A stretch of DNA of 64,000 nucleotides from NCBI GenBank assembly GCA_963729715.1, contig CAVSPA010000005.1, positions 288,001-352,000 of the forward strand, given 5' to 3'. How positions within the stretch are numbered: the stretch's first letter is position 1; the number at the start of each line of letters is the position of its first letter. Positions 902 through 64,000 of this stretch are shown here, in pieces. The DNA is from an uncultured delta proteobacterium. GTDB taxonomy: Bacteria > Desulfobacterota > Syntrophia > Syntrophales > UBA2185. Position numbers and translations under genes: made by a program. The notes under the pieces were generated by a model, which was not told the DNA's origin, searched no databases, and was given only the letters and a program-made list of their open reading frames with translations.

Positions 902-1384
902 CTATCGTGACATGGTTGACATTTCCACTGGACCATATCCGATCCCCACGCCTATGGTTACCTGTGTATTATATTCCGTATTTTTCCCGATCACATCGAC
1001 ATTATATCTGCTCTGCCCCCAGCGCTGTCCGCCGCCGATTGAGTAGCCGGCAAGCGGTATCATTATCGCGCCTATAGTCGGTCGTGTGGTAGGATAATTA
1101 ATAGTATAGCTGGACACACCGTCCGCCCTGTTGACAGTCTGAGGGATGAGGACGGGGTTCTGGGGATCAAATACCTGCGAAAGGTCGTTGATACCGGTGT
1201 CCGCGGCAGCAAGGGCCCGCTTTTCTCCGACAATTTTCACGCTCACCCTGATGTCCTGTGTCGATAGAGAAATAACCAGCATTCCCAGGGCGAGGAGGAT
1301 CAGGCAGGCCATGATGGCTGCGATGAGGGCGAATCCTGCCTCGGAGTTCTTCTTGGGAAGCGTTCTCAGTATATTATTATCCAT
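902..1384 (-). CDS. pilX: PilX-like minor pilin
   Basis: Prepilin site G/FALIA (no Glu5, typical of PilX), hydrophobic helix, ALAAADTG motif. Confidence 0.85.
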   Translation of the reverse strand: MDNNILRTLPKKNSEAGFALIAAIMACLILLALGMLVISLSTQDIRVSVKIVGEKRALAAADTGINDLSQVFDPQNPVLIPQTVNRADGVSSYTINYPTTRPTIGAIMIPLAGYSIGGGQRWGQSRYNVDVIGKNTEYNTQVTIGVGIGYGPVEMSTMSR

Positions 1385-1397
1385 AGTTGCTCCAGGA

Positions 1398-2150
1398 TCA
1401 ATTGTTTCTCAGGGTCTCACGGGTCTTATAGATCATCCTTCGCGTCAGGCCTGTGCTCGGATCGATATCCTCCGTTTCGACTGCAAGCGTAATCTCTATC
1501 ATTCTTATATCTGTGGTACATCCCGGCATGCAGTTCCTCCCTACACCTGGCCCAAAAAGGAGCTCTACTCCCTGGCCGTCGAAGTAACGGAAGACCGGAA
1601 CGTTGACATCGGCGTCAGCATTGATGACTCTTACCGTCCGGGGATTGGCGCTCACGAGCGAATCCCCCAGGAAGGCTTGGGGCCCACCGCAGTTTGCTTC
1701 TCTTGTAATATACCTGTCATTGCCTGTCTGCACAAAGTTATACCTGATGATCTCGTTGCCTTCGGTTAGTGCGCCGTTACCGTCCGGATTACCGTTAGCG
1801 TCGACACCACCCGCGATATCCATTTCCACGGTGATCGAATTCGCTGTAGCCTCCTGTATTCCCTTGTATGTCTGATTTGCAGACGGGGTAGTGCAAAAGT
1901 TAGGCCCTCCCGGATTTCCGTCACTCTGCCAGACGACTGAAAATGACGGGTTATAGGAGGCCATCTTAATCTCCAGGGCCATGATCTCCAAGGCACCCCT
2001 TACATCCTGCTGGGCCGTAACCTTTCTTTCTATACCCCCGGAAGACCTTGATGCCGACTCGATGGCGACGCCGATGGCGAAGAGCATAATGAGCGAGACG
2101 CAAATGGCTATCGCGATCTCGACAAGTGTGAAACCTCTTGCGTCATTCAT
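1398..2150 (-). CDS. pilW: PilW-like minor pilin
   Basis: Start reassigned to MNDARG/FTLVE (ATG 2150); QQDVRGALEIMALEIKMA resembles the PilW motif. Confidence 0.85.
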   Translation of the reverse strand: MNDARGFTLVEIAIAICVSLIMLFAIGVAIESASRSSGGIERKVTAQQDVRGALEIMALEIKMASYNPSFSVVWQSDGNPGGPNFCTTPSANQTYKGIQEATANSITVEMDIAGGVDANGNPDGNGALTEGNEIIRYNFVQTGNDRYITREANCGGPQAFLGDSLVSANPRTVRVINADADVNVPVFRYFDGQGVELLFGPGVGRNCMPGCTTDIRMIEITLAVETEDIDPSTGLTRRMIYKTRETLRNN

Positions 2151-2163
2151 ACGGTTTGACCCA

Positions 2164-2649
2164 TTAGAAACCAACCGGCACGGCATTTGACCCATTCACA
2201 CACCCTGCCGGAAATCTGAAACTTTCCTGTTGCGCAACATCGGCGCTCTCCACAAGATTTCTGTAATTGCGCGCCACTTGATCCGGCCACGTAACCGTAA
2301 CGGTAACGGTCCATATATTTGCGGGACCGACAACAGAGGCGATACTCGTGTTCACTGTGTACGTGGCATCCCCACGAACCTCTGCCCCCAGACCGCTGAC
2401 AATGATGGTTTGCACCGGCCGATTTCCCGTGGGAACAATGTTGCAGGGATTCATGATCCATGCCTCCCGGAGTTCAAGCTCTCTATGCATGATGCCGGCC
2501 CCCCTGCCCATGTAGTCCGATTTTCCTACGGTTCGCCATGCCGAGGGCTGCATTGACAAAATTGCCATGACGCCGACGGTGACCAAAAACATGGCGATGA
2601 CCACCTCGATGAGACCGATACCCCGTTTAGACAATATTAAACGTGACAT
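2164..2649 (-). CDS. pilV: PilV-like minor pilin
   Basis: KRG/IGLIEVVIAM prepilin motif, VTVTVTW near the C-terminus. Confidence 0.8.
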   Translation of the reverse strand: MSRLILSKRGIGLIEVVIAMFLVTVGVMAILSMQPSAWRTVGKSDYMGRGAGIMHRELELREAWIMNPCNIVPTGNRPVQTIIVSGLGAEVRGDATYTVNTSIASVVGPANIWTVTVTVTWPDQVARNYRNLVESADVAQQESFRFPAGCVNGSNAVPVGF

Positions 2650-3115
2650 ACGTTCTTCCCGTCAAATTGACTGTAATTGTGGCTCGAGAGTTTCTGCTGT
2701 TCTGCAGGACCACGCCGTCGAGAACTGCATTTCCCAGGGGTGATACTGTGCCTCTGGGGTTAAAAACAACCGTCTGCAATGCGCCCGGACCAAATGTGGC
2801 GCTGAAGATTGTAATATCTGACCCGAACGTTGAGGGGCTCTTGGTCGTCAGGTTGGTGACAACTGCGTTCACCACCGACTGTATCGTATAGCTGCCGGGG
2901 ACAGGAGTATTAAAGGCAATTTGATATGTAATGCTTTCGGAAATCGCTCTTTCCTTGTATATGGCAAAGTCAGAAGCAATATCTCTCGCTGCGCTCCTGA
3001 GATTTCTATTTATAGTATAACTTTGCAGCCACAATCCAGCGATGGTTGAAATGAATGCCAGCAGAAAGACGACGATCATCAGCTCCACCAGCGTGAATCC
3101 TTTAGGTCGTTTCAT
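2627..3115 (-). CDS. fimT: FimT/FimU (GspH-like) minor pilin
   Basis: MKRPKG/FTLVELMIVV, VFNPRG, C-terminal TGRTYV. Confidence 0.85.
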   Translation of the reverse strand: MKRPKGFTLVELMIVVFLLAFISTIAGLWLQSYTINRNLRSAARDIASDFAIYKERAISESITYQIAFNTPVPGSYTIQSVVNAVVTNLTTKSPSTFGSDITIFSATFGPGALQTVVFNPRGTVSPLGNAVLDGVVLQNSRNSRATITVNLTGRTYVTFNIV

Positions 3116-3116
3116 A

Positions 3117-3926
3117 CTATTTCTTCCCGTCAATGAGGTCTAACAGTTCTGCCTCGGGTAAAGCCCCTATTTTGAGTCTGCCATCCGGCAGTATCAGTGA
3201 GGGTGTTACCCCAATCCCCAGCAAGTTGGCAAGCTTCATAGAATTATCTATCTCAGCGGTGGCACACTCCGTCTTAGGAATCTCCCTCTTTTCGAAGTTA
3301 TCATCCAGCATCTTCACCGATTTGTTGCAGACGATGCTCTTTGCCTTCCAGTAAGCGTCTTTATGAAACTCCAAAGGCAAAAACTTTATATAAAATGCTA
3401 TGTCCTTTCTTTTGGCTATGAGCTGTTTCATCGTCTGGTGAAACTGTCTGCAGAATGGACAATCAGGGTCTGTAAATACGACTACCTTTTTCGCTGCGTC
3501 CTTCTCCCCCAGGACGAGGGCATCAGTCAGCGGAATCTTCGCTATGTCGATCCTTTTATTGTCTTCAATCCTGCGAATAGCCTCCATGGTCTTGCTGGTC
3601 ATGGTAGACACTTCTACGAAATTACCACCAAGGATCAGATAGTTTTTATCAACGTCAAGATAAAATATCTTCGTCTGTCCCATGATATCGATAACTACTT
3701 CACAGACGCCCTTGATGGGACTGTCCGCGATGCCGAGCACCTTCGCATCAGGCAAGTTGAGCTTCTTTAATATCTCTGTTATCCCTTCCCCGCCTAAGGA
3801 GACGCAGTCTTTCTTTACCTGGCCCGTTTCTGCTCCCCACGCGCTGCCATATCCTGAAGAAGCGGAGACAAAAAGCAATGCACACGATAGACATAAGAAA
3901 GCAGAGAATAAGCTTTTTCTTGTCAA
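3117..3926 (-). CDS. dsbC: DsbC-family periplasmic thiol:disulfide isomerase
   Basis: FTDPDCPFC active site, GVTP cis-Pro loop, signal peptide; probable TTG start at 3926 after SD AGAGGT (track ORF extends to 4007). Confidence 0.88.
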   Translation of the reverse strand: MTRKSLFSAFLCLSCALLFVSASSGYGSAWGAETGQVKKDCVSLGGEGITEILKKLNLPDAKVLGIADSPIKGVCEVVIDIMGQTKIFYLDVDKNYLILGGNFVEVSTMTSKTMEAIRRIEDNKRIDIAKIPLTDALVLGEKDAAKKVVVFTDPDCPFCRQFHQTMKQLIAKRKDIAFYIKFLPLEFHKDAYWKAKSIVCNKSVKMLDDNFEKREIPKTECATAEIDNSMKLANLLGIGVTPSLILPDGRLKIGALPEAELLDLIDGKK

Positions 3927-31488: not shown

Positions 31489-32469
31489 TTACAACAGGGC
31501 TTGATGATCTTTTACCATTTCTATGTCTGTTTTCATGTTGCGTCCCCGGGTTGTCAAATAGTTACCGATCATCAAACCATTTGCACCGGCAAGCATGGCC
31601 CATGATTGATAATCTCTGAGAGTAATTTCTCTCCCGCCGCAGATGAGGATATTCTTGTCGGGATTGACAAATCTGAAAATAGCTATGCACTTCAATGCCT
31701 CGAGAGGCAAGAGCAAGGGTTTATTTTCCATTCTGGTACCGGCAATCGGATTGAGAAAATTTATCGGTATACCGTCGACATCGAGTTCCTTCAGAGTAAC
31801 GGCAAGTTCGACGCGCTGCTCCCACGTTTCTCCAAGTCCTAAGATACCGCCCGAACAAGTTTTCATCCCGGCAGCCTTGGCAACTCTAACTGTAATAATG
31901 TCCTCTTCGTAGTCATGCGTGGTACATACCTTATCGAAGAAACTGCGGGCCGTTTCCAGATTATGATGGTACACGGCAATCCCCCCCTCCTTGAGGCTGC
32001 GCGCCTTGGCCTCAGTAAGCATCCCCAGAGAGGCGCAGACCGTGAGGTCCGTTTCTCGGGAAATGGCAGTGGCGCTACGGCAGATGATGTCCAGTTCCTC
32101 ATCTGTCGGCATATAGCCGCTTGTTACCATGGAATACCTTGTGGCCCCTCCCCTGTTTGATTCCATTGCGCTTTTCACAATCTCTTCTTCATCCAATAAA
32201 GGATATGTCTTGATCTCAGTTCTGTGATGGGACGATTGGGCGCAGAAGGCGCAGTCCTCGGTACAAGAACCAGATTTGGCATTGATGATGGAGCACAGAA
32301 TAGTTTCTTTTGCCTGTCGCATCTTCTTGATCTTGTGGGCGCAGAATAATAAGTCCATGGTATCCTTTTCTGGAAGACGGGCAAGTTCACATGCATCTTC
32401 ATAGGAAAGAGCATCACCGCCAGCGTCAATAATCTTCTCAGTGAACTCGACGATTTTCTTATTGAACAT
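31489..32469 (-). CDS. bioB: Biotin synthase
   Basis: NAKSGSCTEDCAFCAQS radical SAM motif, HHNLET, CSGGILGLGE, GNYLTT. Confidence 0.98.
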   Translation of the reverse strand: MFNKKIVEFTEKIIDAGGDALSYEDACELARLPEKDTMDLLFCAHKIKKMRQAKETILCSIINAKSGSCTEDCAFCAQSSHHRTEIKTYPLLDEEEIVKSAMESNRGGATRYSMVTSGYMPTDEELDIICRSATAISRETDLTVCASLGMLTEAKARSLKEGGIAVYHHNLETARSFFDKVCTTHDYEEDIITVRVAKAAGMKTCSGGILGLGETWEQRVELAVTLKELDVDGIPINFLNPIAGTRMENKPLLLPLEALKCIAIFRFVNPDKNILICGGREITLRDYQSWAMLAGANGLMIGNYLTTRGRNMKTDIEMVKDHQALL

Positions 32470-32566: not shown

Positions 32567-32596
32567 AGTCAACCGTATTTATATTTTGGGTTGACA
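32567..32596. promoter_or_regulatory. BirA operator between divergent bioB and birA
   Basis: GTCAACC-N14-GGTTGAC palindrome; the right arm contains a TTGACA -35 box. Confidence 0.85.
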
Positions 32597-32625
32597 ATTA
32601 GACATGGCGATGTTATGAGCCGCGG

Positions 32626-33612
32626 ATGTCTACTAGACAGCAATTACTCATCTATCTGAAAGAAGGCAAAGGAACCTGGGTCTCTGGCGAATTCCTCGCC
32701 CATAAAATGGCGGTTTCCCGGTCGGCTGTATGGAAGCATATTGGCAGTCTAAAAAACGATGGCTACGTTATCGAATCGTCACGAAAGAAAGGATACCTCC
32801 TCCGCCAGACATCCGATTTGCTTCTCGCTAATGAGATCCGGGAAGGGCTGAACACAAATGTCTTCGGCAAAGGAGAAATTATTTATTTCAGGGAAACAGA
32901 CTCAACCAATGCAAGGGCTAAGTATCTGGCAGGCGATGGTACTCCTGAGGGAACGGTGATTGTCGCGGAAAAGCAAACAGAGGGAAGAGGGAGAAGGGGA
33001 AGAAGTTGGTTTTCACCTCCCGGTGAAGGAATCTACACATCTGTCATCCTGAGGCCGCCCATTCCTCCAAATGAAGCGCCTAAGCTGACTTTGCTCGCAT
33101 CGGTGGCGTTAGCTGAGGCGTTGCTTTCTCTTACATCACTAGAGGTCAGTATTAAATGGCCCAACGACATCCTGATCAGGGGCAGGAAGGTTGCGGGCAT
33201 ACTGACGGAGATCAGCACGGAAATGGACAGAATCGATTATGTGGTCATCGGTGTTGGTGTAAATGTGAATACGCCTAGCAAAGGCCTTCCCCCTGATATC
33301 GCACACACGGCCACATCGGTTTTTATGGAGACGGGCAAAGAGTTCCCCAGGATAGTTCTTCTCCGTGCTTTTCTGGAGTGGCTCGAAATATATTACGAAA
33401 CATTTAAGACCAAGGGCTTTGATCCCATATTGAATCGATGGAAGCACCTTGCTGACATCATCGGGCACCGGATCAGTGTTGACCTCATGGACAGTACACG
33501 CGTCGGAAAGGTCCTAGACGTAGACAAAGACGGTTTTCTCATTCTTCAGGATCGCAAGGGAACGATTGAGAGGATAATTTCCGGCGATGTAGCCCTGTTG
33601 AGCAAGGTGTAG
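32626..33612 (+). CDS. birA: Bifunctional biotin repressor / biotin-protein ligase
   Basis: N-terminal HTH (SGE.LA...VSRSAVWKHI), DSTN, GRGRRGRSW, KWPND, KVAGIL. Confidence 0.97.
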   Translation: MSTRQQLLIYLKEGKGTWVSGEFLAHKMAVSRSAVWKHIGSLKNDGYVIESSRKKGYLLRQTSDLLLANEIREGLNTNVFGKGEIIYFRETDSTNARAKYLAGDGTPEGTVIVAEKQTEGRGRRGRSWFSPPGEGIYTSVILRPPIPPNEAPKLTLLASVALAEALLSLTSLEVSIKWPNDILIRGRKVAGILTEISTEMDRIDYVVIGVGVNVNTPSKGLPPDIAHTATSVFMETGKEFPRIVLLRAFLEWLEIYYETFKTKGFDPILNRWKHLADIIGHRISVDLMDSTRVGKVLDVDKDGFLILQDRKGTIERIISGDVALLSKV

Positions 33613-33728: not shown

Positions 33729-35090
33729 ATGACTTACGAAGACAGTAAAGAATTGGAGATCGACGACAAGAAGTATGTTTGGCATCCCTTTACCCAGATG
33801 CGGGGTTATGAAAAGGAAACGCCACTCATCATTGAGGATGGCAACGGATGTCTCTTAAGAGATACGGCAGGCAATAGCTATATTGATGGTGTTTCTTCGC
33901 TCTGGACGAATGTTCATGGCCATAGGAAAAAGAGACTTGACGACGCATTGAAGAAGCAGCTTGGCAAGATTGCCCACTCAACCCTGTTGGGACTTTCCAA
34001 CATACCCGCAATCAGACTGGCAAAGAAATTAATTGCAATTGCCCCTGCGGGATTGACAAAAGTATTTTATTCCGACAATGGCTCCACGGCCAATGAAATA
34101 GCCCTTAAGATGGCCTTCCAGTACCATCAGCAATGCCCTTCGGGAAAGCGCAGCAAGAAGAAATTCATTCGCCTGTCCAATGCCTATCATGGGGACACCA
34201 TAGGCTCAGTGAGCGTGGGAGGGATTGATCTCTTCCATTCCATGTATAGGGACTTGCTTTTCCCGTCTTTCAAGGCGGAAGCGCCGTACTGCTACCGCTG
34301 CGCCTTGGGAAAGTCCCATCCCACTTGCGGGCTCGAATGTCTTACGCACGTGGAGGACATAATGAATGCTCATAACCATGAGATTGCCGCTCTCATGATA
34401 GAGCCCTTGGTCCAGGGAGCCGGTGGCATATTGGTGCAGCCACCGGGATACCTGAAAGGGGTAAGAGAGTTGTGCACCCGTTACAATATCTTTATGATCG
34501 CTGACGAAGTGGCGGTCGGCTTCGGCAAGACGGGAAAGATGTTTGCCTGTGAACATGAAGGCGTGACGCCGGACATCATGACCCTGGCAAAGGGAATAAC
34601 AGGAGGGTATCTCCCGCTTGCGGCAACCCTCGTGACGGAGGAAATCTATGAAGGATTCCTCGGGGAGTTCGAGGAGTTCAAGACATTCTTTCACGGACAC
34701 ACATTTACGGGAAACCCTCTGGCATGCGCAGTTGCAAGTGCCAGCCTTGAGGTCTTCGAAGAGGAGCGCACCCTTGACAAACTCCAGACAAAAATTGCGC
34801 ACCTCGCAAAGAGGCTAGAACCATTTGCTTCTCTCAGTCACGTCGGAGAGGTGCGCCAGTGCGGCATCATGGGAGGTATAGAACTTGTTTACAATCGGGA
34901 GACGAGGCAGCTTTTCCCTCCGGAGAAGAGAATCGGCCATAGGGTCATCATGGAGGCTAGAAAGAAGGGCGTGATTATCCGCCCTTTAGGGGACGTAATT
35001 GTCCTGATGCCGCCCTTGTCAATTTCTAAAAAGGAAATGGATCTGCTCTGTCAATCTGTATACGATGCGATTCGGATTGTGACAGAATAG
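33729..35090 (+). CDS. bioA: DAPA (7,8-diaminopelargonate) aminotransferase
   Basis: WHPFTQM, DGVSSLW, YHGDT, ADEV..GFG, AKGITGGYLP, RPLGD. Confidence 0.97.
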   Translation: MTYEDSKELEIDDKKYVWHPFTQMRGYEKETPLIIEDGNGCLLRDTAGNSYIDGVSSLWTNVHGHRKKRLDDALKKQLGKIAHSTLLGLSNIPAIRLAKKLIAIAPAGLTKVFYSDNGSTANEIALKMAFQYHQQCPSGKRSKKKFIRLSNAYHGDTIGSVSVGGIDLFHSMYRDLLFPSFKAEAPYCYRCALGKSHPTCGLECLTHVEDIMNAHNHEIAALMIEPLVQGAGGILVQPPGYLKGVRELCTRYNIFMIADEVAVGFGKTGKMFACEHEGVTPDIMTLAKGITGGYLPLAATLVTEEIYEGFLGEFEEFKTFFHGHTFTGNPLACAVASASLEVFEEERTLDKLQTKIAHLAKRLEPFASLSHVGEVRQCGIMGGIELVYNRETRQLFPPEKRIGHRVIMEARKKGVIIRPLGDVIVLMPPLSISKKEMDLLCQSVYDAIRIVTE

Positions 35091-35105
35091 ACGTGGGACC
35101 TCGAA

Positions 35106-35432
35106 ATGGCAGGTTATAAGAAAGCATCAGAGAGAAGCCCCGAGGATGGCTCCTGGGAGGGCGTCTTCTATTTTCATCCGGATGACGGCATCTACCAGGA
35201 TCATTTCCCCGGTTACCCGGTTGTCCCCGGGAGCTTGATAGTGTATGCATTTTTGGAAGCGGCCGCAGAAGCTTGCTTCTTACCGAATTATGTTACAATA
35301 GAAAACTTCAGGTTCAGAGAGTTTCTCTCACCTGGCCATCACGCATTTCGTATCGAACTGGAGGATGACCGGCTGATATGCCAGATTTATCGGGGAGAGA
35401 AGATACTCGTTACGGGAGTCTTAAAGAAATGA
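35106..35432 (+). CDS. FabZ-like hotdog dehydratase subunit carrying the catalytic His motif
   Basis: DHFPGYPVVPG; the usual Glu position holds Tyr. Confidence 0.75.
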   Translation: MAGYKKASERSPEDGSWEGVFYFHPDDGIYQDHFPGYPVVPGSLIVYAFLEAAAEACFLPNYVTIENFRFREFLSPGHHAFRIELEDDRLICQIYRGEKILVTGVLKK

Positions 35433-36172
35433 GCCTCCATTTTTCGGGAAATCGCGCCCTTATTCTGGGAGGCACCTGCGAGCTTGCTCTGGCTTTGGCT
35501 CAATCCATGATAGAGTCTAAACTTTTTCCCATTCTTACTTACAGAGATGATAAGGGTCTAAATGCAATCGGAGAGTCTCTGAGGCCCTTTCATGGGAGAT
35601 ACGAGACTTGCTATCTGAATTTCGGTCATCATGATTTGCTGGAATCAGCCTTTGCCCAAATCGGTGATGATCTCAATTTCCTGGTAGATTTTGCCCAGGG
35701 AAATTATGAAAGCCTTATCGCTGCAGCAGACGAGGACAGCGTTAACAGTTATTTCACGGAGAATATCTCCTTTCGCGCTGAGATTCTGAAAAGGGCGGGA
35801 AGGGCGATGCTGAAGAGAAGAAAGGGGCGGCTCGTCTATATTTCTTCTGCAGCAGCGTTAAGACCCAATCCCGGCCAGGGATTTTATGCGGCGTCAAAGC
35901 TCGCTTCAGAGGCCCTCTATCGCAATATGGGACTGGAACTGGGGGAACGAGGTGTGACCACGGTGATCCTTCGTCCCGGTTATATTGATGCCGGGCGGGG
36001 CAGAATTTATCTGCAAAAGCAGGATCGAAAAATTCTTGAGATGACACCGATAAAGAGGACTATAACAGTCGAAGAAATTGCCGAGACGATTCTCTTCCTT
36101 CTTTCCGACAGCGCCGTCGGCATCAACGCAACAGCGATTTCCATGGACGGCGGTCTCACATCCGTAAAATAA
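35429..36172 (+). CDS. fabG: FabG-like 3-oxoacyl-ACP reductase (SDR)
   Basis: ISS, GQGFYAASK (YxxxK), PGYID, DGG; ATGA-coupled start at 35429. Confidence 0.85.
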   Translation: MSLHFSGNRALILGGTCELALALAQSMIESKLFPILTYRDDKGLNAIGESLRPFHGRYETCYLNFGHHDLLESAFAQIGDDLNFLVDFAQGNYESLIAAADEDSVNSYFTENISFRAEILKRAGRAMLKRRKGRLVYISSAAALRPNPGQGFYAASKLASEALYRNMGLELGERGVTTVILRPGYIDAGRGRIYLQKQDRKILEMTPIKRTITVEEIAETILFLLSDSAVGINATAISMDGGLTSVK

Positions 36173-36241
36173 AAAGCTGCTGAAGCTCTCCATCGGAAGG
36201 GAAGAGAGGGCTTGAGCGGCACATCTGAAAGTTGAGGACAC

Positions 36242-36613
36242 ATGGACATTTTTACTGAATTAAAAAAAATGCTGGAGGAACTGCTTGACATCGAAGACAG
36301 GGAAATTACGCCTGAGACTCTTCTCATCCAGGATTTGGGCGCTGAGTCCATTGACCTCCTGGAGCTCGCCGTAACTATAAACAGCCGGTTTAAAATCGCC
36401 GTGAAGGATGATGAGGTATTCCTGACACGATTCAGACTCTATTCTACGGAAGCGAAGCAACAGGGCAAGGACACCATCCATTATGTTGCCGGAAAATATC
36501 CTTTTCTCGGCGAAGACCGGATAGCGGAGATAATTGCGCATATTAAAGAAGGTCCTCAGTTGAAGATAAAGGACCTCATCAGTTACGTAGAATACCGGTC
36601 ACAGAGGGTTTAA
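36242..36613 (+). CDS. Acyl carrier protein with a large internal insertion
   Basis: DLGAESIDLLEL phosphopantetheine site; 123 aa long. Confidence 0.88.
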   Translation: MDIFTELKKMLEELLDIEDREITPETLLIQDLGAESIDLLELAVTINSRFKIAVKDDEVFLTRFRLYSTEAKQQGKDTIHYVAGKYPFLGEDRIAEIIAHIKEGPQLKIKDLISYVEYRSQRV

Positions 36614-36617
36614 CGCC

Positions 36618-37256
36618 TTGGATATGACGCCTCTCGATAAACTGATCAATCAGCGGAGAAGCATCAGGAAGTACAAACCCGAATGCCCGCCCGAAGAATG
36701 GTTAAAAAAGATGATCCTGGCGGCAATGAGGGCGCCTTCTCCTTCCAACAGCCAGCCCGTACGGTTCATCCGCATACTTTCGCCCGAGTTGAAGGATTGT
36801 CTCCTTCGGGCCATGCGCGCAGGTGAGGAGCGTTTGATGGATGCCGTTGGGAATTCGAGCAATCCAAAAAGATTGAGAAACTGGATCAACGCCTACCGAC
36901 GGTTCTCAGAGTTCATGTTCGATGCCCCGGTACTCTTTGCCGTCGGCACCACCATGACATTTCTCAATCTTGCAGTAAGGCTAGCCCGCGCAGGTGCGAT
37001 GGAACAGGGGCATAAGAGACACCGGGACATTGACATTGCCGTGGGTCTGGCTCTTCACGGATATCTGCTTAAGGGGGAGGAACTTGGCCTGGGTTCTTGT
37101 ATTCTCACAGCTCCCCTGCTCTTTATCCAGGAACCAGAGGGAATCCTCGGATTGAAGGGGATGGAGATCGAATGCTTTGTTACAACGGGGTATCCCGATG
37201 AAGAACCACTTTATATCAAGCGAAAAGATATCACCGAAATCTACAGGGAAGTATAA
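36618..37256 (+). CDS. Nitroreductase-family FMN oxidoreductase
   Basis: RRSIRKY, APSPSNSQP, GLGSC, GYP. Confidence 0.9.
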   Translation: MDMTPLDKLINQRRSIRKYKPECPPEEWLKKMILAAMRAPSPSNSQPVRFIRILSPELKDCLLRAMRAGEERLMDAVGNSSNPKRLRNWINAYRRFSEFMFDAPVLFAVGTTMTFLNLAVRLARAGAMEQGHKRHRDIDIAVGLALHGYLLKGEELGLGSCILTAPLLFIQEPEGILGLKGMEIECFVTTGYPDEEPLYIKRKDITEIYREV

Positions 37257-38471
37257 ATGACAAGAAGGGTCGTTATTACCTCAATGGGAATTCTCTCATC
37301 TCTCGGCTCTGACCGCGAAGAGATTATAAGGAGCTTCAGAGAGGGAAAAGTAAATTTCGAAAGACCCGCCTTTGACGACGAAGTCGTTACCTCCCCCGTC
37401 AGGGGCTTCAACGTGCGGGCATATACAGGCCCGTTTAAGGATGGCCGGTATCTAAACCGCTGCTCTCAGTTTGCTGTTGCCTCAGCCATCTCAGCGATAA
37501 AGAATTCGGGCTGCAAAAACGACTATCTGGAAGGAGCAGGACTCTTTGTCGGCGCCGGACCGAACCTCGATATCGGGGGCGAGTTCCCCGAGATCAGGAG
37601 AGGGGAAATTGACCGTGAGAACCTTCAGGCCTTATGGATCCTGAGATTTCTGCCCAACACCGCTGCATCTGTTATCGCAAAGCTTACAGGTGTCCACGGA
37701 GAGAACCTCACGGTATGTACTGCCTGTTCGGCTTCCCTACAGGCAATTGGAGAGGCGTTTCGAAAGATAAAGAACGGCTATCTCGATTGCGCCCTTGCCG
37801 GAGGCGGTGATTCCCGCCTGAGTCAGGGCGGAATACTGGCATACAAAAAGGCAAGCGCCCTCTATAAAGGTGACGGCGAACCTGATAAGGCAAGTAGGCC
37901 CTTCGATTGCAGCCGGAGCGGCTTTGTCCCCGGGGAAGGAGCGGCCTTTTTTCTTCTCGAGGAATTGGAAAAAGCGAAAGCGCGGGGGGCACAGATATAT
38001 GGCGAGATTTGTGGTTACGGAAGTTCCATGGACGCTGGCGGCATGATTGCCCCGGAAGGTACTGGAAAATGGGGAAGAATAGCCGTGCTTTCCGCTTTAC
38101 AGGAGGCGGAAACGTCTCCCTCTCAGATTGATGTGATTTCCACACACGGAACGGGAACCCTCCTCAATGATGAAGGAGAGGCCAACCTCATAGACGACAT
38201 CTACATGGGCTGCAGCCCCCGGGTAATGGCACTGAAATCCTGGATAGGACACACGGCTTCAGCCTGCGGAGCTATGGAGCTTGCTCTCTTACTAATCTGT
38301 CTCCAGGAGAATTATATCCCCGAGATCAGAAACCTGAGAGATCCCTGCTCAGAGAAAATCGATTTTGTTCGGAGCGGAGGAACTTTTACATTTGGTACGT
38401 GCGTCATTGAAAATTTCGGGTTTGGAGGACAGAATAGCGCTCTCATAGTGAAACGGCAGGAAGAGGTTTAA
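37257..38471 (+). CDS. fabF: FabF-like 3-oxoacyl-ACP synthase
   Basis: Cys-His-His triad TACSAS / HGTGT / KSWIGHT; SRPFD, GEGA, NFGFGG. Confidence 0.93.
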   Translation: MTRRVVITSMGILSSLGSDREEIIRSFREGKVNFERPAFDDEVVTSPVRGFNVRAYTGPFKDGRYLNRCSQFAVASAISAIKNSGCKNDYLEGAGLFVGAGPNLDIGGEFPEIRRGEIDRENLQALWILRFLPNTAASVIAKLTGVHGENLTVCTACSASLQAIGEAFRKIKNGYLDCALAGGGDSRLSQGGILAYKKASALYKGDGEPDKASRPFDCSRSGFVPGEGAAFFLLEELEKAKARGAQIYGEICGYGSSMDAGGMIAPEGTGKWGRIAVLSALQEAETSPSQIDVISTHGTGTLLNDEGEANLIDDIYMGCSPRVMALKSWIGHTASACGAMELALLLICLQENYIPEIRNLRDPCSEKIDFVRSGGTFTFGTCVIENFGFGGQNSALIVKRQEEV

Positions 38472-38504
38472 GAATCGTGTACGTGCCATGGCAGGAAGTA
38501 TCGT

Positions 38505-38972
38505 ATGGAAGCGAATAGTATGGACACGAACATTGTCATCAACACAGGACTCACAGGCTTCATAATGCTCGACAGGATTCTGGAAGTGAATGCCGCCAGC
38601 ATCGTTGGTACGAGAACATTTACCGGCGCGCCGGCCGATTTGCCTCTGGAGTCCTTTGCCCAAATTGGCGCGTTCCATATCCGCTACATTACCGGGTTTT
38701 CCAGACATGTCTTTCTTATAAAAATCGTGAACTGCTCCATCCCTTTAAGGATGCCCTTGCAGGGGAAATACGTATTAACCGGGAACCTGCTCAGTCGGAC
38801 CGATTCATCCTTTCGCTCTTCTGTGAAGGCGGAAAGGGACAAAGAAACAGCTGCCGAGGCGGAGCTTCTGTTCACCGCAGTTGATTACGATCATAATTTT
38901 AAAAAGGGCATCTTGTGCGACCACTACATGAGGGTATTTTCATGTTTGCAGAGAGATACAGAAACCGTCTGA
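38505..38972 (+). CDS. FabZ-like hotdog dehydratase subunit carrying the catalytic Glu motif
   Basis: FIMLDRIL and LESFAQ match FabZ FLLVDRVL and LEAMAQ; the HFP loop is absent. Confidence 0.7.
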   Translation: MEANSMDTNIVINTGLTGFIMLDRILEVNAASIVGTRTFTGAPADLPLESFAQIGAFHIRYITGFSRHVFLIKIVNCSIPLRMPLQGKYVLTGNLLSRTDSSFRSSVKAERDKETAAEAELLFTAVDYDHNFKKGILCDHYMRVFSCLQRDTETV

Positions 38973-40087
38973 TGCTGCAGCAGCAGACGGGTCTATACCG
39001 CAAACCGCCGGAAGTGAAAGAAAGAGACGGGAAGTACCTCAACATAGAGGGAAGGAGGGTATTGAATTTCGCCTCCAATGACTACCTGGGCCTCGGCACT
39101 TCTGAGGAACTGCGACAACGGGCGGCGCGAAATTTCGGGAAGTATGGAACGTCATCTTCATCATCGCGCCTGGTGTCAGGAAACTATTCTACAATAATCA
39201 ATGCGGAAAAAGAATATGCATCATATTTCGGTTATGGCGATGCCATATTCTTCCCGAGCGGTTACCAGGCGAACTTGGGCATTCTTTCCACCCTTCTGGA
39301 ACGGGGGGACACCGTCATTTTTGACAAGCATATCCATGCAAGCTCCGTAAAGGGAATGATGATGAGCGGAGCGAACTTTCTCGGGTACAACCATAATTCC
39401 ATGCCCCACCTTGAGAAGAGACTGGAAATGTGCACGGGTGAGCAGGTTGCCGTCCTGACAGAGTCTCTCTTCAGTATGGATGGAGATCTTCTGGATGTAA
39501 CTGGTCTCAGCAAATTAAAGGAGCGTTGCCGCGTCCTGGCAATCGTAGACGAAGCCCACGCTTTCGGCGCCATAGGTTCCGGAGGGCGGGGCATCGCTGG
39601 TACTATTGCGGATATTGCTGTTGGAACCTTTGGAAAGGCTTTCGGCTTTTTTGGCGCCTTTGTCCTTCTTCCCGTGGGATTCAAGGAATACCTATTTAAC
39701 TTTTCCTCTCCTCTCATTTATACCACAACCCTTCCGGAAGCCCATGCCGCAACGGCAATAGACATTCTGGAAATTGTAGAGCGCAGTAATGACAGGCGGA
39801 AACGCCTGAGAGATACCAGTCAATTTCTGAAGAAACGCTTGCGTCTTGAGGGATTTCGGGTGACGGGTGATGCTCACATTCTGGCCTTGGAGATCGGCGA
39901 TGAGGCTAAGGCTATAAATATGGCCCGGAAGCTTCTCCAAAGGAATATATTTGTCCTCCCGGCCCGCTATCCCACAGTGCCTCTGCACCGCTCAATACTG
40001 AGAATAGGCGTCACGGCGCTTCACGAAGAAAAAGATATTATATCATTCATTGACCACGTAAAGGAAGCAAGTGAAGAGCTCGAATAA
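38942..40087 (+). CDS. bioF: 8-amino-7-oxononanoate synthase
   Basis: NFASNDYLGL, SRLVSG, SGYQAN, FSMDGD, DEAH, GTFGKAFG. Confidence 0.96.
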   Translation: MFAERYRNRLMLQQQTGLYRKPPEVKERDGKYLNIEGRRVLNFASNDYLGLGTSEELRQRAARNFGKYGTSSSSSRLVSGNYSTIINAEKEYASYFGYGDAIFFPSGYQANLGILSTLLERGDTVIFDKHIHASSVKGMMMSGANFLGYNHNSMPHLEKRLEMCTGEQVAVLTESLFSMDGDLLDVTGLSKLKERCRVLAIVDEAHAFGAIGSGGRGIAGTIADIAVGTFGKAFGFFGAFVLLPVGFKEYLFNFSSPLIYTTTLPEAHAATAIDILEIVERSNDRRKRLRDTSQFLKKRLRLEGFRVTGDAHILALEIGDEAKAINMARKLLQRNIFVLPARYPTVPLHRSILRIGVTALHEEKDIISFIDHVKEASEELE

Positions 40088-40778
40088 GAAAATTCAAAAT
40101 CTATTTGTTGTGGGAACGGATACAGGGGTAGGAAAAACAGTACTTGCCCTTCTCCTGATGCAATTCTTTTTTGCTAAGGGATATAGCCCTTTCTATCTCA
40201 AGCCCGTGCAGACAGGATGCACCGATGCAGACGATGCTGACAGTGATGCAAAATTCATTTACAGGCATGTCGAATCTTTGAATGGCAGACAGCCGACTGA
40301 ATCCGTGATCTACTGCTTCAAGAATCCGAAGGCACCTCTCTATGCCGCGAGCAATGAGGGAAAATTAATAGACCTATCAAAGATAAAGAGAGTCGTAGCT
40401 CAGAAGTCAGAGGCCCACTCCCCCGTAATACTCGAAGGTGCAGGGGGTGTGCTGGTCCCCGTAGCGGAGAAGAAGCTTATAGTTGACATTATCAGCTTAG
40501 TAGATGGAACTCCCGTCATAGCCGCAAGGGCGGGATTAGGGACAATTAACCACACCCTCCTTACGATTGAAGCCATAGAAAAAAGAGGGATTAAGCCTCT
40601 CGGAATTGTCTTTATTGATGCCGGCGAAAAGGAAACACCCGCTGAGATGATTAGGGAAAACATATCCGCTATCGAAGAAACTTCCGGCATAAAAGTGGCC
40701 GGGGTTATCGGCAGAATTCATGATTTTTCGCGGCCGCCGCATGATTGCTACAAACCTTTAGCAAAGATGTTTAGTTGA
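40071..40778 (+). CDS. bioD: Dethiobiotin synthetase
   Basis: GTDTGVGKT, KPVQTG, EGAGG, LGTINHTLLT. Confidence 0.97.
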   Translation: MKSSNKKIQNLFVVGTDTGVGKTVLALLLMQFFFAKGYSPFYLKPVQTGCTDADDADSDAKFIYRHVESLNGRQPTESVIYCFKNPKAPLYAASNEGKLIDLSKIKRVVAQKSEAHSPVILEGAGGVLVPVAEKKLIVDIISLVDGTPVIAARAGLGTINHTLLTIEAIEKRGIKPLGIVFIDAGEKETPAEMIRENISAIEETSGIKVAGVIGRIHDFSRPPHDCYKPLAKMFS

Positions 40779-47299: not shown

Positions 47300-48632
47300 C
47301 CTATTGCCTCATAAATAAATGTTACCGAAGGATAGCTGCATGAGAGGAACGTTGCCTCATAAAGAATGTTACCCATGGTTGTCGTTTATGGAGGAGATTT
47401 TTTTAAGTTTTGTTTCCATAGTTTTTCTTAGCAGAAAGTGGTTAAGATTTTCAAGTTGTTTAGAGAGTGAGAGTTTTACTGTTTCAGGCAAATGAGGAGA
47501 GTCCATGACTCTCTGATAAGGTGTTTTCGGTTTGTCATGTTGTTTGACAGTTTTAGAACCGATACGTTCTTTGGCAATGAGTTTCACGGAGGGGCAGAAG
47601 AAGTTATGGAAGAGCCTCCATTCGTTACGGTAGAGGTTATTAAGAAGGGGTACGGCCCGTGGATTATCTAATCTCTGGTAGCCGAGCCATTGACGTACAT
47701 GGGTCCAGTTTTTCTGTTCCACATGTGCGTTATCATCTTTGTGGTACGGTCTGCTGCGGGTGAATTTTACGGGGTGTTTTCGTTGGGTAAAATGCCTCAC
47801 GAGGTGATAATTTAAGAACTCTGATCCGTTATCGCAATCGAAGCCAAGGAGTGGGAAGGGGAGCGTTTTTTCTATGTCTTTGATTTGTTGAAGGACACCT
47901 GTTTCTCCTTTACCCCACACAGCTCTTTGTTCTGTCCATCCGGTGGCGATGTCCACGCAGTCTATGGTATATGCGTACATTCCCAGCAATGACTCGCCAC
48001 AATGGGCTACGGTATCGGCTTCAAGGAATCCCGGTTTTGATTCATCCCACTGGTTTGTTTGTATAGGGATTTGTTTTCTCAGGAGGGTCCCTGGCTTTGT
48101 AGTGGATCTGCCACGTTTCTTGTATTGTATACGGGTAGGTTGAAGGAGCCTGTCTATGGTGGCCGGGGAGATTTTCACCAGGGCTTCAACAACCGTGGGA
48201 GGAAGTTTACCAAAGAGTTGGACATAGCTTGGCAGCCAGAGCGGTAAAATAGCTTTTAGGCGTTTTGAACAGGGGAGATTCGCTGCCAGCCATATCTGTT
48301 TTAAGGGCTTCAGAATCTCCTCATTTTGATAAACGGGAGGCTTCCCTCGCTTCTTCGGTCTTGGCTTTGTGAAGCGTTTAAATCTCCTGAGAAGGCGTAT
48401 GGCATGTTTCCTATGGTATCCGCACGTTGTGCAGAACTCGTTCAGGATAATTGTTTTTTCATGGCGGGAAGCATTTTTATAGCGTAAATGGATTGCCCTG
48501 GTGTACTCTTTTTTCGATCGTGGACTCATCGATTACCCTCCTTTCGGAAGTCGATGTTCGGTAACATCGAATTATGAGTCAACGATCTCTTTTATTCACC
48601 TCCTTGGGTAACATTTAATGTGAGGCAATTCG
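47300..48632 (-). mobile_element. Insertion sequence (IS481/ISNCY-like) with doubled terminal repeats and a putative 4-bp target duplication
   Basis: TTGCCTCA-N-ATGTTACC units at 47304 and 47352, inverted copies at 48560 and 48607; ACCA flanks both ends symmetrically. Confidence 0.85.
47369..48529 (-). CDS. DDE (rve integrase-core) transposase
   Basis: PGFLEADTVAHCG, DCDNGSEF, SRPYHKDDNAHVEQKN. Confidence 0.92.
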   Translation of the reverse strand: MSPRSKKEYTRAIHLRYKNASRHEKTIILNEFCTTCGYHRKHAIRLLRRFKRFTKPRPKKRGKPPVYQNEEILKPLKQIWLAANLPCSKRLKAILPLWLPSYVQLFGKLPPTVVEALVKISPATIDRLLQPTRIQYKKRGRSTTKPGTLLRKQIPIQTNQWDESKPGFLEADTVAHCGESLLGMYAYTIDCVDIATGWTEQRAVWGKGETGVLQQIKDIEKTLPFPLLGFDCDNGSEFLNYHLVRHFTQRKHPVKFTRSRPYHKDDNAHVEQKNWTHVRQWLGYQRLDNPRAVPLLNNLYRNEWRLFHNFFCPSVKLIAKERIGSKTVKQHDKPKTPYQRVMDSPHLPETVKLSLSKQLENLNHFLLRKTMETKLKKISSINDNHG

Positions 48633-62473: not shown

Positions 62474-62715
62474 TTACACTACCTCCTACTTTATCCGATA
62501 TTAACAAGAACCTGTCCAACTGCTACGGAGTCACCAGACTTTACATGAATACTCTTCACCTCCCCGTCAACCGGAGCAGCAAGAGGATTCTGCATTTTCA
62601 TGGCCTCCAGGATCACGACCTGCTGTCCTGCCTTCACCTTGTCACCTACCTTGCATGTAACGTCAACAATAAGACCGGGCATGGGCGCTGTTACTGATCC
62701 GGCGCCTGCTTTTGC
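62237..62715 (-). repeat. Tandem duplication (about 225 bp) of the biotinyl-domain coding sequence
   Basis: 62237..62461 aligns without gaps to 62491..62715, stop codon included. Confidence 0.9.
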
Positions 62716-64000
62716 AGCTGGCGCTGCGGCCGGCGCTGGAGCCGCTGCAGGTCTTGGAGCCGCCGGTGCTGCTGCTCTCGCTGGTGCCGCAGGTTTCGGA
62801 GCCGCCGGTGCTGCCGCTGGTTTCGGCGGTGCGGCAACCTGCGTTACCGCAGGAGCTGCAATCATCGCCCCTCCTTCCGCTTCTACTTCTACTGCATAGT
62901 AACTGTCATCGACAAAGACGTTGAATTTCCGGATGCCGGCGCCTTTTTCGGGCGCTACCTTTTCGGGTTTTTCCACAAGTTTCCCCGCCAAGGCTTTCTT
63001 AATCAGTTCGTCTTCTTTCTTTACTTCTTCAATAGTCTTTGGCTTGGCCTCTTTGGGAACGGGCTCGAGACCATACTTCCATTTGAGGAATCTCAATCCC
63101 GTCTGCGGATAGAGGGCGTAAATGAGAACATCTCCTTTGTTTTTCGCGATATCTTTTGTCGCTTCTCTCGCTTTTTCCATTTCCGGATCTAACGCGTCTG
63201 CGGCACGGTTCGTCATGGGGGTCTCGCCACGCTTATAACCTTTCAGACACAGCTTCTGAACAGTTGGATCGATTGGTGCGGGCGGTGCACCATAGAGACC
63301 GAAACAGTAGTCCTTAACTTCCGAGGTAATCATCTTGTAACGCCCCATGAGCACGTTCATAACGGCCTGGATACCGACAATCTGGCTGGTTGGAGTGACC
63401 AGAGGAGGATATCCTAGCTCTTTCCGGGTCTGGGGAAGTTCGGCATACACCTCATTGATTCGATGCAGAGCATTTTGTTCCCTCAGATTAGACACGAGGT
63501 TGGTCTGCATGCCGCCGGGGACCTGATGGAGCAACACACCGGCATCGATGACTGCCATTCTTGTGGTGTCGAGGAACTGACGGTACTTCGGAGCAATCGT
63601 TTCCACATAATTGCCAATCTCGACAATCTTTCTCAGATCCAGACCGATTTCCCGATCTGTGCCTTCGAGGGCAACGAGGAGCGGTTCAATAGCGGGCTGG
63701 GAGGATCGCAGAGCAAAGGGAGACAGCGCCGTATCGACAATATCTACACCAGCTTCCGCAGCCTTCAGGAGTGCCATTGAACCCTGGCCGCTGGTGTAGT
63801 GGGTATGGAGCTCTATGGGAATCTTGATAGCTGCCTTCAGGGCTTTTACCAGTTCATAGGCGTCATAGGGAGAAATCAACCCTGCCATATCCTTGATACA
63901 GAAGGAGTCCGCGCCCATCTCTTCGATAATCTTCGCCTTCTTTACATAGTATTCGAGATCGTACACTTCACCACCCATGCGCCTCTGGGTCAGGGAGTAG
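62491..64000 (-). CDS. pycB: Pyruvate carboxylase subunit B / oxaloacetate carboxyltransferase with C-terminal biotinyl domain (5' end beyond the window)
   Basis: IKDMAG, LHTH, HQVPGG, PLVTPTSQIVG, Ala/Pro linker, EAMKM. Confidence 0.9.
   Translation of the reverse strand, partial: YSLTQRRMGGEVYDLEYYVKKAKIIEEMGADSFCIKDMAGLISPYDAYELVKALKAAIKIPIELHTHYTSGQGSMALLKAAEAGVDIVDTALSPFALRSSQPAIEPLLVALEGTDREIGLDLRKIVEIGNYVETIAPKYRQFLDTTRMAVIDAGVLLHQVPGGMQTNLVSNLREQNALHRINEVYAELPQTRKELGYPPLVTPTSQIVGIQAVMNVLMGRYKMITSEVKDYCFGLYGAPPAPIDPTVQKLCLKGYKRGETPMTNRAADALDPEMEKAREATKDIAKNKGDVLIYALYPQTGLRFLKWKYGLEPVPKEAKPKTIEEVKKEDELIKKALAGKLVEKPEKVAPEKGAGIRKFNVFVDDSYYAVEVEAEGGAMIAAPAVTQVAAPPKPAAAPAAPKPAAPARAAAPAAPRPAAAPAPAAAPAAKAGAGSVTAPMPGLIVDVTCKVGDKVKAGQQVVILEAMKMQNPLAAPVDGEVKSIHVKSGDSVAVGQVLVNIG

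Follow-up and report, generated by a model that had tools for sequence, protein, structure and literature searches.

A biotin operon of an uncultured Syntrophales bacterium carries a cassette predicted to make pimeloyl-ACP

Introduction

How is pimelate made in strict anaerobes that have no BioC, BioW, BioI or BioZ? We address this biochemical question through a 64,000-nt stretch of DNA from an uncultured delta proteobacterium of the order Syntrophales (assembly GCA_963729715.1, contig CAVSPA010000005.1, positions 288,001 to 352,000 of the forward strand; hereafter, the window). Its biotin operon is a compact copy of the system in question, with all candidate enzymes together. Between bioA and bioF-bioD lie genes for a first hotdog protein (DH1), a FabG-like ketoreductase (KR), a long acyl carrier protein (ACP), a nitroreductase-fold flavoprotein, a FabF-like ketosynthase (KS) and a second hotdog protein (DH2). 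A first interpretation, made from the letters alone (the sequence-only reading), took these genes for a dedicated KS, KR, dehydratase, enoyl reductase and ACP set that leads to pimeloyl-ACP without a methyl ester. This proposal fits the linkage, the residues and the absence of known routes described below. It is very likely that the cassette makes pimeloyl-ACP for biotin. It probably does so as a dedicated, BirA-repressed miniature type II synthase that keeps the far carboxyl free, starts from a malonyl primer and runs two cycles.

The cluster and the hypothesis are already in print, and the window cluster is one more example of a pathway already known. According to the available passages of Trotter et al. 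2023 (PMC10102598), ten genes of Desulfovibrio vulgaris are specifically required in the absence of biotin: bioF, bioA, bioD, bioB, two FabZ-like genes, a KR, an ACP, a FabF-like KS and the unlinked nitroreductase DVU1220. Nine of the ten are clustered, and the organism has neither bioC nor bioH. Other Desulfobacterota are described as having similar clusters, which in Syntrophobacter fumaroxidans and Desulfobacter vibrioformis include a nitroreductase-like gene. The same passages state the same pathway hypothesis, with the nitroreductase as a possible enoyl reductase and a housekeeping enzyme as the alternative; they credit the prediction to Rodionov 2004 and to Lin and Cronan 2011, and leave the pathway chemistry for further study. 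We found no biochemical follow-up of the cluster in the open literature (subscription papers were not covered). The sequence-only reading, which had called the pathway uncharacterized, was right about the biochemistry, but the genetics and the same hypothesis had been published. What is added here are the invariant arginines of KS, KR and DH2, the split of the catalytic His and Glu across the two hotdog proteins, and a reduced ACP-nitroreductase-bioF module.

Linkage of the cassette to biotin genes

We tallied 96 loci with a bio-type KS: nine loci, the best 80 of 486 confirmed stretches, and seven from genome handles. Excluded from the tally were eight short duplicate loci, L027, L031, three housekeeping regions of the host genome, and two Escherichia coli loci (labels beginning with L, G, C and f are our handles for loci, genomes, contigs and families). 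Each count takes only the loci that are long enough on the relevant side. Because it draws on the best 80 of the 486 stretches, the set favours close relatives, and its loci do not count as independent cases.

At least one bio gene stood beside the KS in 70 of the 71 loci with room for one. Linked to the KS were bioF (66/67), bioD (48/51), bioA (41/46) and bioB (29/34) and, within the cassette, DH2 (74/77), the nitroreductase (74/79), the ACP (64/66), DH1 (50/53) and the KR (51/59). Frequent occurrence of the cassette away from bio genes, named beforehand as the pattern that would overturn the proposal, was not seen. The exception is L008, which ends at the KS and has no upstream bioA. L109, which was too short to count, has ACP, nitroreductase and KS genes with no bio gene in 3.6 kb upstream or 1.1 kb downstream.

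The cassette of L008 (L008:5821-9083) lies on a contig labelled as a Methanosarcinaceae archaeon. Its KS is sister to that of the bacterial locus L006 (support 100/100), and mis-binning is therefore at least as likely as transfer. Other departures from the common layout were the absence of the nitroreductase in L021, L075 and L083, the absence of DH2 in L084, and a break after the KS into apparent CRISPR cas genes in L073.

Across the phylum, DH2 was found in 8 of 401 genomes, and a bio-type KS of at least 267 bits in the same eight. In the order of G343, the count is 3 of 121 genomes. G106, with a KS of 231 bits, was rejected as an orthologue; its ACP is short, it has no cassette, and it falls outside the clade. 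BioC-like matches (E 1e-30) were present in 107 of the 401 genomes and in none of the eight cassette genomes. In genus g76, BioC-like genes and the cassette occur in different genomes, four and two, respectively.

Known pimelate routes in the host genome

The host genome (G000) is 100% complete with 6.48% contamination. Its best BioC match reached 70 bits against a cut-off of 185, and its best BioH match 62 bits against 207. BioG gave nothing above cut-off, the esterases BioK, BioJ, BioV and BtsA not having been searched for. BioW and cytochrome P450 had no matches at all, with controls positive in 2 and 8 of 14 genomes, respectively. These negatives cover BioC, BioH, BioG, BioW and P450; BioE and BioU were not searched for. 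The claim that bioC, bioH, bioG, bioW and bioI (a P450) are missing from the window thus holds genome-wide, with none above cut-off. BioW was also not found in any of the eight cassette genomes other than the host. The single KAS III (ketoacyl-ACP synthase III) of the genome belongs to a fabH-fabA-fabG-fabZ-fabF-like cluster 390 kb from the cassette, and was not compared with a BioZ sequence.

The BioC-BioH route of E. coli presumably shares with the proposed pathway a malonyl primer and two elongation cycles to pimeloyl-ACP. It differs in using a methyltransferase and an esterase, neither of which is above cut-off in this genome. The cassette enzymes appear to be adapted to the charge, whereas in the BioC-BioH route the substrate is masked.

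The cluster with the single KAS III is a second fatty-acid cluster (G000:C5:710488-714591; L018:8488-12591), with KAS III, FabA, FabG, FabZ-like and divergent FabF/FabB-like genes. It sits behind an acyl-CoA dehydrogenase gene, apart from the acpP-fabF pair on C7.

The proposed pathway and its conserved arginines

FabD and an AcpS-like motif are present in the genome. In the proposed pathway, these housekeeping enzymes would prime and malonylate the long ACP. The KS would load malonyl on Cys157 as a primer, with Arg187 holding the carboxylate, and would condense it with a second malonyl-ACP to 3-oxoglutaryl-ACP, which the KR would reduce. Dehydration would quite probably fall to a DH1:DH2 heterodimer with a single active site, formed by His33 of DH1 and Glu49 of DH2. 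The nitroreductase-fold flavoprotein, on balance the better candidate, would then reduce the enoyl bond to give glutaryl-ACP, a housekeeping FabK-like enzyme being the alternative. A second cycle would yield pimeloyl-ACP, from which the adjacent BioF, BioA, BioD and BioB would complete biotin.

The Cys-His-His triad that the sequence-only reading had seen in the KS was confirmed by alignment to E. coli FabF: Cys157, His297 and His332 align with C163, H303 and H340. In an alignment of 125 KS sequences (the window, 117 of 120 homologues, three short ones being dropped, and seven from the loci), the triad and Lys327 were invariant. Equally invariant was Arg187, which takes the place of Ala193 in E. 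coli FabF and is absent from housekeeping or E. coli counterparts, as were Tyr196 (Phe202 in FabF), Trp127 (Phe133) and Arg68. The pocket differences from FabF comprise A193R, F202Y, F133W and T137F/W. A D/E-S-R motif was found in 233 of 235 KS homologues; in the remaining two, the Arg is visible on inspection. The KS stayed below the cut-off of the housekeeping FabF equivalog TIGR03150 (273.8 vs 493.75 bits). In a tree of 30 rows, the 23 rows that we had chosen as bio-type KS split from the seven other KS at 100/100. The predicted structure is FabF-like, with a predicted local distance difference test (pLDDT) score of 84.9 and a template modelling score of 0.87.

The KR keeps Ser140, Tyr153 and Lys157 in 50 of 50 sequences and has an altered glycine-rich motif. 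Arg190, at the position of Met188 in FabG, was likewise found in 50/50 and is absent from housekeeping or E. coli counterparts. Together with Arg60 of DH2, these invariant, family-specific arginines of KS and KR are candidate carboxylate clamps. The available literature passages give Ile108 and Phe202 of FabF as the back gate of the acyl pocket. For BioZ, Hu and Cronan expected the pocket to have an Arg at its end, and Zhang et al. modelled Arg147 in that place, in the text available from each. The ACP has the motif ESID in 68 of 70 sequences and a median of 88 residues after the Ser, compared with 42 in E. coli AcpP.

Enoyl reduction and the reduced module of family f58

The flavoprotein has a nitroreductase fold, outside the known enoyl-ACP reductase classes FabI, FabK, FabL and FabV. 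Its motif RRS-x-R occurs in 70 of 72 sequences. The nearest solved structures are 3gfa, 3eo8 and iodotyrosine deiodinase, the fold group includes the enone reductase 4qlx, and the ESM Atlas label is generic nitroreductase only. From its gene context and fold, we consider it somewhat more probable than an even chance that this protein is the enoyl-ACP reductase of the pathway.

It is also conceivable, if rather doubtful, that the cassette makes pimeloyl-ACP with a housekeeping FabK-like enoyl reductase, the flavoprotein having another redox job such as supplying electrons for BioB. This explanation would account for the absence of a detected orthologue in three of the eight cassette genomes (G177, G343 and G368), for the loss of the gene from 5 of 79 loci, and for matches to the NMO/FabK family in four of five genomes tested. 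The nitroreductase required in D. vulgaris is a distant relative, an Fe-S type according to the available passages of PMC10102598, whose authors name the housekeeping alternative. The genomic neighborhood argues the other way. The gene lies between those of the ACP and the KS, and stays with the ACP where the cassette is split (G231). Orthologues of at least 239 bits occurred in only 7 of 401 genomes, with the long ACP adjacent in all seven. Moreover, the fold includes an enone reductase, and enoyl reduction is the one activity otherwise missing from the cassette. G177 has an unlinked gene with ferredoxin-type Cys motifs fused to a nitroreductase, which resembles DVU1220 as described.

Family f58 was reached through two of the seven nitroreductase orthologues. 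In three of its five genomes (96-97% complete), the long ACP is part of a reduced ACP-nitroreductase-bioF module (Table 1), whose proteins are 38-56% identical to those of the window. In two of the three loci the module is accompanied by bioD and a gene for a PcaD-like hydrolase. With the queries used, the five f58 genomes yielded no bio-type KS, KR, DH1 or DH2, only housekeeping-level matches, in assemblies of 60-370 contigs where missing genes are possible. All five have bioB elsewhere, and in the genomes with the module it is on other contigs. Because the module keeps the ACP and the flavoprotein while bioB lies apart, the flavoprotein is tied more to the ACP than to BioB. G073, G509 and G510 have the ring-cleavage hydrolase Oah, which was not found in G107, G511 or the nine full-cassette genomes.

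The primer

The sequence-only reading allowed either glutaryl with one cycle or malonyl with two. Malonyl is the better supported and is probably the primer; glutaryl fared less well. With glutaryl, the KS would extend a catabolic glutaryl thioester once, as BioZ does, and the private KR, dehydratase and enoyl reductase would finish the chain. We regard this as unlikely, although it has precedent. In the available passages, BioZ, the sole characterized free-carboxyl KS, takes glutaryl-CoA and gives no product from a malonyl-CoA primer. Arg187 would suit a C5 primer as well as a C3 primer, and the host genome has a glutaryl-CoA dehydrogenase, Acd, at 708.9 bits against a cut-off of 470.

The supply of glutaryl speaks against that scheme. 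The host was the only one of five cassette genomes tested with a glutaryl-CoA dehydrogenase above cut-off, and G177 and G343 had none at E 1e-40. Oah, as stated above, was not found in 9/9 full-cassette genomes, and the cassettes inspected by eye, as far as they were listed, showed no ligase or CoA-transferase. The ten D. vulgaris genes, as given in the available text of PMC10102598, include no glutarate-supply gene. In addition, E. coli FabG, FabA and FabI are reported, in the passages at hand, to complete the C7 free-acid intermediate made by BioZ. Since housekeeping enzymes suffice for the C7 cycle, a private KR, dehydratase and enoyl reductase are best explained by a harder C5 cycle.

The BioZ route of alpha-proteobacteria (PMC7645780, PMC8024396) shares with the malonyl-primed pathway proposed here a dedicated KS, a free omega-carboxyl, probably an Arg, and pimeloyl-ACP as the product without methylation, as far as the available passages go. 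BioZ is of the FabH/KAS III type, whereas the window KS has the FabF fold with Cys-His-His. BioZ uses glutaryl-CoA for one cycle with housekeeping ACP, KR, dehydratase and enoyl reductase; the window has a private ACP, KR and dehydratase and a candidate enoyl reductase.

In the host genome, Acd is preceded by open reading frames (ORFs) that by eye resemble a solute symporter and two CoA-transferase subunits (G000:C5:430839-435614; L127). These ORFs had no NCBIfam match at 1e-20. L127 is possibly a glutarate-use operon.

Biotin carboxylase (AccC) was not found in the genome, and malonyl-CoA may be supplied by transcarboxylation. Only two biotin carriers are clear, a PycB/5S-type fusion and the 78-aa frame that follows it (window 62491-64000; G000:C5:350491-354363). 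They adjoin one MmdA-like carboxyltransferase.

The dehydratase pair

In FabZ, the active site combines a His and a Glu from different subunits. DH1 keeps the loop of FabZ His54 in 51 of 53 sequences, the other two rows having a gap there. DH2 shows the reverse pattern, with the Glu in 66/66, a gap at the His loop in 66/66, and the invariant Arg60 in 66/66. Among 148 of 150 listed distant DH2 representatives, 140 had the motif E-x-x-AQ and none had HFP. Of the 51 loci long enough on both sides, 47 had DH1 as well as DH2. As a rule, neither protein has the His and Glu on one polypeptide, as a homodimeric FabZ does, and the pair carries complementary catalytic residues on two hotdogs, as ApeI and ApeP do. 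In the available text (PDB 6qsr; PMC8041823), ApeI/ApeP is a heterodimeric dehydratase of aryl polyene synthesis with a single active site. Given the His/Glu split and this precedent, DH1 and DH2 are quite probably one heterodimeric dehydratase. The likeness lies in two hotdog subunits proposed to form one active site; ApeI:ApeP serves a different pathway. The sequence-only reading had a hotdog dehydratase and a second hotdog protein; the two are probably halves of one enzyme and not two separate dehydratases.

The DH2 model (pLDDT 86.5) had FabZ chains at Foldseek ranks 1-10. Against the ApeP chain 6qsr_B it gave Z 12.6 and a root-mean-square deviation of 4.2 over 119 aligned residues at 11% identity; DH1 matched 6qsr_A weakly by sequence (E 0.73). 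DH2 alone had no match among the sequences of solved structures, and its profile gave only weak FabZ matches (best E 0.035). Profile-profile comparison of DH1 with DH2 found no similarity (probability 1.7%).

DH2 could instead act as a thioesterase, setting pimelate free or editing chains that have stalled, with DH1 as the sole dehydratase. A wide structure search ties thioesterase hotdogs (Z 13.4-13.7) with FabZ (Z 13.3), and DH2 has no Pfam match. We nevertheless consider this improbable. The Foldseek ranking points to FabZ, and DH2 resembles FabZ both in its F-x-x-x-D start and in its E-x-x-AQ helix. In 50 of 53 DH1 sequences the Glu is absent, and the two genes keep company. Free pimelate would also require BioW, which was not found in the host or in 8/8 relatives.

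Points against the proposed pathway

Our observations concern gene content, linkage, residues, folds and the absence of the tested known routes, and the requirement for the corresponding D. vulgaris cluster without biotin is published (PMC10102598, available passages). Several further points weigh against the synthase as drawn. The reactions of all cassette enzymes are predicted ones, and transposon effects within an operon can be polar. The exclusion between BioC-like genes and the cassette is suggestive only, because its hypergeometric P is 0.08, and related genomes do not count as independent cases. Eight of 59 loci have no KR; in L076, L087, L097 and L098, which are otherwise full cassettes, DH1 directly adjoins the ACP, and the step may therefore be taken over by a housekeeping FabG or by a KR encoded elsewhere. 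The Glu of DH1, at the position of Glu68, is retained in 3 of 53 sequences, including both Desulfovibrio-type ones. Since no bio-type KS was found in the f58 genomes, the KS is apparently not needed everywhere in the family. Position 193 of FabF presumably lines the acyl pocket, for which the literature search gave no confirming passage, and the KS model is poor near it (pLDDT <50 at residues 103-113 and 125-131). Finally, BioZ R147A kept partial activity in the available text of Zhang et al. The clamp role of Arg187 is therefore a putative one.

It is very improbable that the product of the cassette is some other lipid or polyketide and that its genes merely travel with bio genes: L109 and L008, with their missing bio neighbors, and the heterodimeric dehydratases of polyene synthases (as described in the passages available) would suit such a product, but the biotin-specific fitness defects in D. 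vulgaris (PMC10102598, available passages) largely exclude it, and the 70/71 bio linkage, the bioF overlap and the absence of any tested alternative route in the genome add to this.

Relation to known clusters and significance

The D. vulgaris Hildenborough cluster (DVU2558-DVU2565 with DORF42491, plus DVU1220) has in common with the window two FabZ-like genes, a KR, a dedicated ACP and a FabF-like KS between bio genes, an adjacent birA, and the lack of bioC and bioH; this likeness is drawn from the published description, its own sequences not having been compared. The nitroreductase of D. vulgaris is the unlinked Fe-S type DVU1220, whereas that of the window is a short type inside the cluster, as in the S. 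fumaroxidans and D. vibrioformis form. The window differs further in its divergent bioB. As with Desulfovibrio-type clusters, the genome has a separate housekeeping acpP-fabF pair, which is above cut-off and lies on C7.

The window KS is 51% identical over 403 aa to the KS of Halodesulfovibrio spirochaetisodalis (P0282), which falls within the same bio-type clade (100/100) and whose species is named among cluster carriers in the legend of Fig. S3 of PMC10102598 (available text). Most of the nearest named KS relatives (80-86% identity) bear the label Syntrophales or Syntrophaceae. The homologue matches listed included no named D. vulgaris protein.

A route to pimelate from three malonates was proposed in 1963 (Lezius, Ringelmann and Lynen, cited in PMC7645780) and long doubted, synthase pockets being hydrophobic, according to the available passages. 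We suggest tentatively, as a speculation with some way to go, that this family could be its natural form: its FabF would clamp an unmasked malonyl primer with an Arg, its KR would be lined by Arg, its dehydratase would have His and Glu on separate subunits, and its nitroreductase-fold enzyme would be a new class of enoyl-ACP reductase. The long ACP and the flavoprotein would then be the minimal determinant, the C7 chain of f58 coming from housekeeping enzymes or from ring-cleavage 3-hydroxypimeloyl-CoA.

If the pathway is as proposed, the pimelate stage would be free of S-adenosylmethionine and oxygen, engineered hosts could use it to make biotin or diacids of five and seven carbons, and the flavoprotein may represent a new class of enoyl reductase. 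The residue map names targets for mutation, namely R187 of the KS, R190 of the KR, H33 of DH1, E49 and R60 of DH2, and S36 of the ACP. Together with the reduced f58 module, it makes the chemistry easier to test.

Gene order and operator

The six tightly packed genes between bioA and bioF-bioD, all on the forward strand, and their position downstream of birA and its operator are as the sequence-only reading had described them (Table 1). The genes that it named were all upheld, but it had omitted bioB, which diverges from the birA side around the common operator region.

Table 1. Features of the biotin locus in the window and of the reduced modules in family f58
Feature	Position	Strand	Basis or remarks
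bioB, biotin synthase	31489..32469	-	TIGR00433, 395.7 bits (cut-off 225); divergent from birA
Palindromic operator GTCAACC-N14-GGTTGAC, presumed BirA site	32568..32595		Sole match in the window
birA, helix-turn-helix repressor and biotin ligase	32626..33612	+	PF08279, PF03099 and PF02237; TIGR00121 above cut-off
bioA	33729..35090	+	TIGR00508, 555.5 bits (cut-off 405)
DH1, short FabZ-like hotdog; His33 (HFPG) kept, catalytic Glu mostly gone	35106..35432	+	PF07977; FabZ structure matches
KR, FabG-like short-chain dehydrogenase; Ser140-Tyr153-Lys157 intact, altered glycine-rich motif, Arg190	35429..36172	+	Pfam/NCBIfam and alignment
Long dedicated ACP, 123 aa; attachment Ser36 in ESID	36242..36613	+	PF00550; about 45 extra residues after helix II
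Nitroreductase-fold flavoprotein, candidate enoyl-ACP reductase	36618..37256	+	PF00881
KS, FabF-fold ketosynthase; Cys157/His297/His332/Lys327 and Arg187	37257..38471	+	Family scan, alignment, model, tree
DH2, FabZ-like hotdog; Glu49 kept, His loop absent, Arg60	38505..38972	+	Fold match; no family hit
bioF, 8-amino-7-oxononanoate synthase	38942 (or ATG 38972)..40087	+	TIGR00858 best match, 332 bits, below cut-off 426
bioD	40071..40778	+	TIGR00347, 138.8 bits (cut-off 83.3)
Reduced module	G073:C76:4520-7356 (L116)		Beside had-oah-dch ring-cleavage genes
Reduced module	G107:C1:198324-200396 (L117)		Beside a cysteine desulfurase-like gene
Reduced module	G509:C12:2527-5345 (L119)		Beside a cysteine desulfurase-like gene

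Every gene name is backed by Pfam/NCBIfam scans except that of DH2, which had no hit, and that of bioF, which stayed below cut-off with a score computed from ATG 38972. The N-termini of relatives suggest ATG 38942 as the bioF start. The intergenic gaps from bioA to bioD are 15, -4, 69, 4, 0, 33, -1 (from ATG 38972) and -17 nt, so that none exceeds 69 nt and three junctions overlap. The G+C content of the cassette (0.501) is close to that of bioA (0.503) and of the genome (0.487), and thus gives no compositional sign of recent insertion.

The palindrome had no match in 100 shuffles. In 19 of 22 related loci, a looser form lies where birA and the bio genes diverge. The palindrome resembles the consensus of BirA sites and is presumed to be one. 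A TTGACA overlaps the right arm of the operator (window 32591-32626), and birA has no obvious ribosome-binding site; its transcript is possibly leaderless. A promoter scan listed no site before birA, and promoter and terminator scans gave nothing above chance (11 vs 10.0 and 8 vs 9.8, respectively).

Elsewhere in the window, a 386-aa ORF on the reverse strand (47369-48529) resembles by eye an integrase-core transposase, and several ORFs at 902-3133 have pilin-like N-termini.

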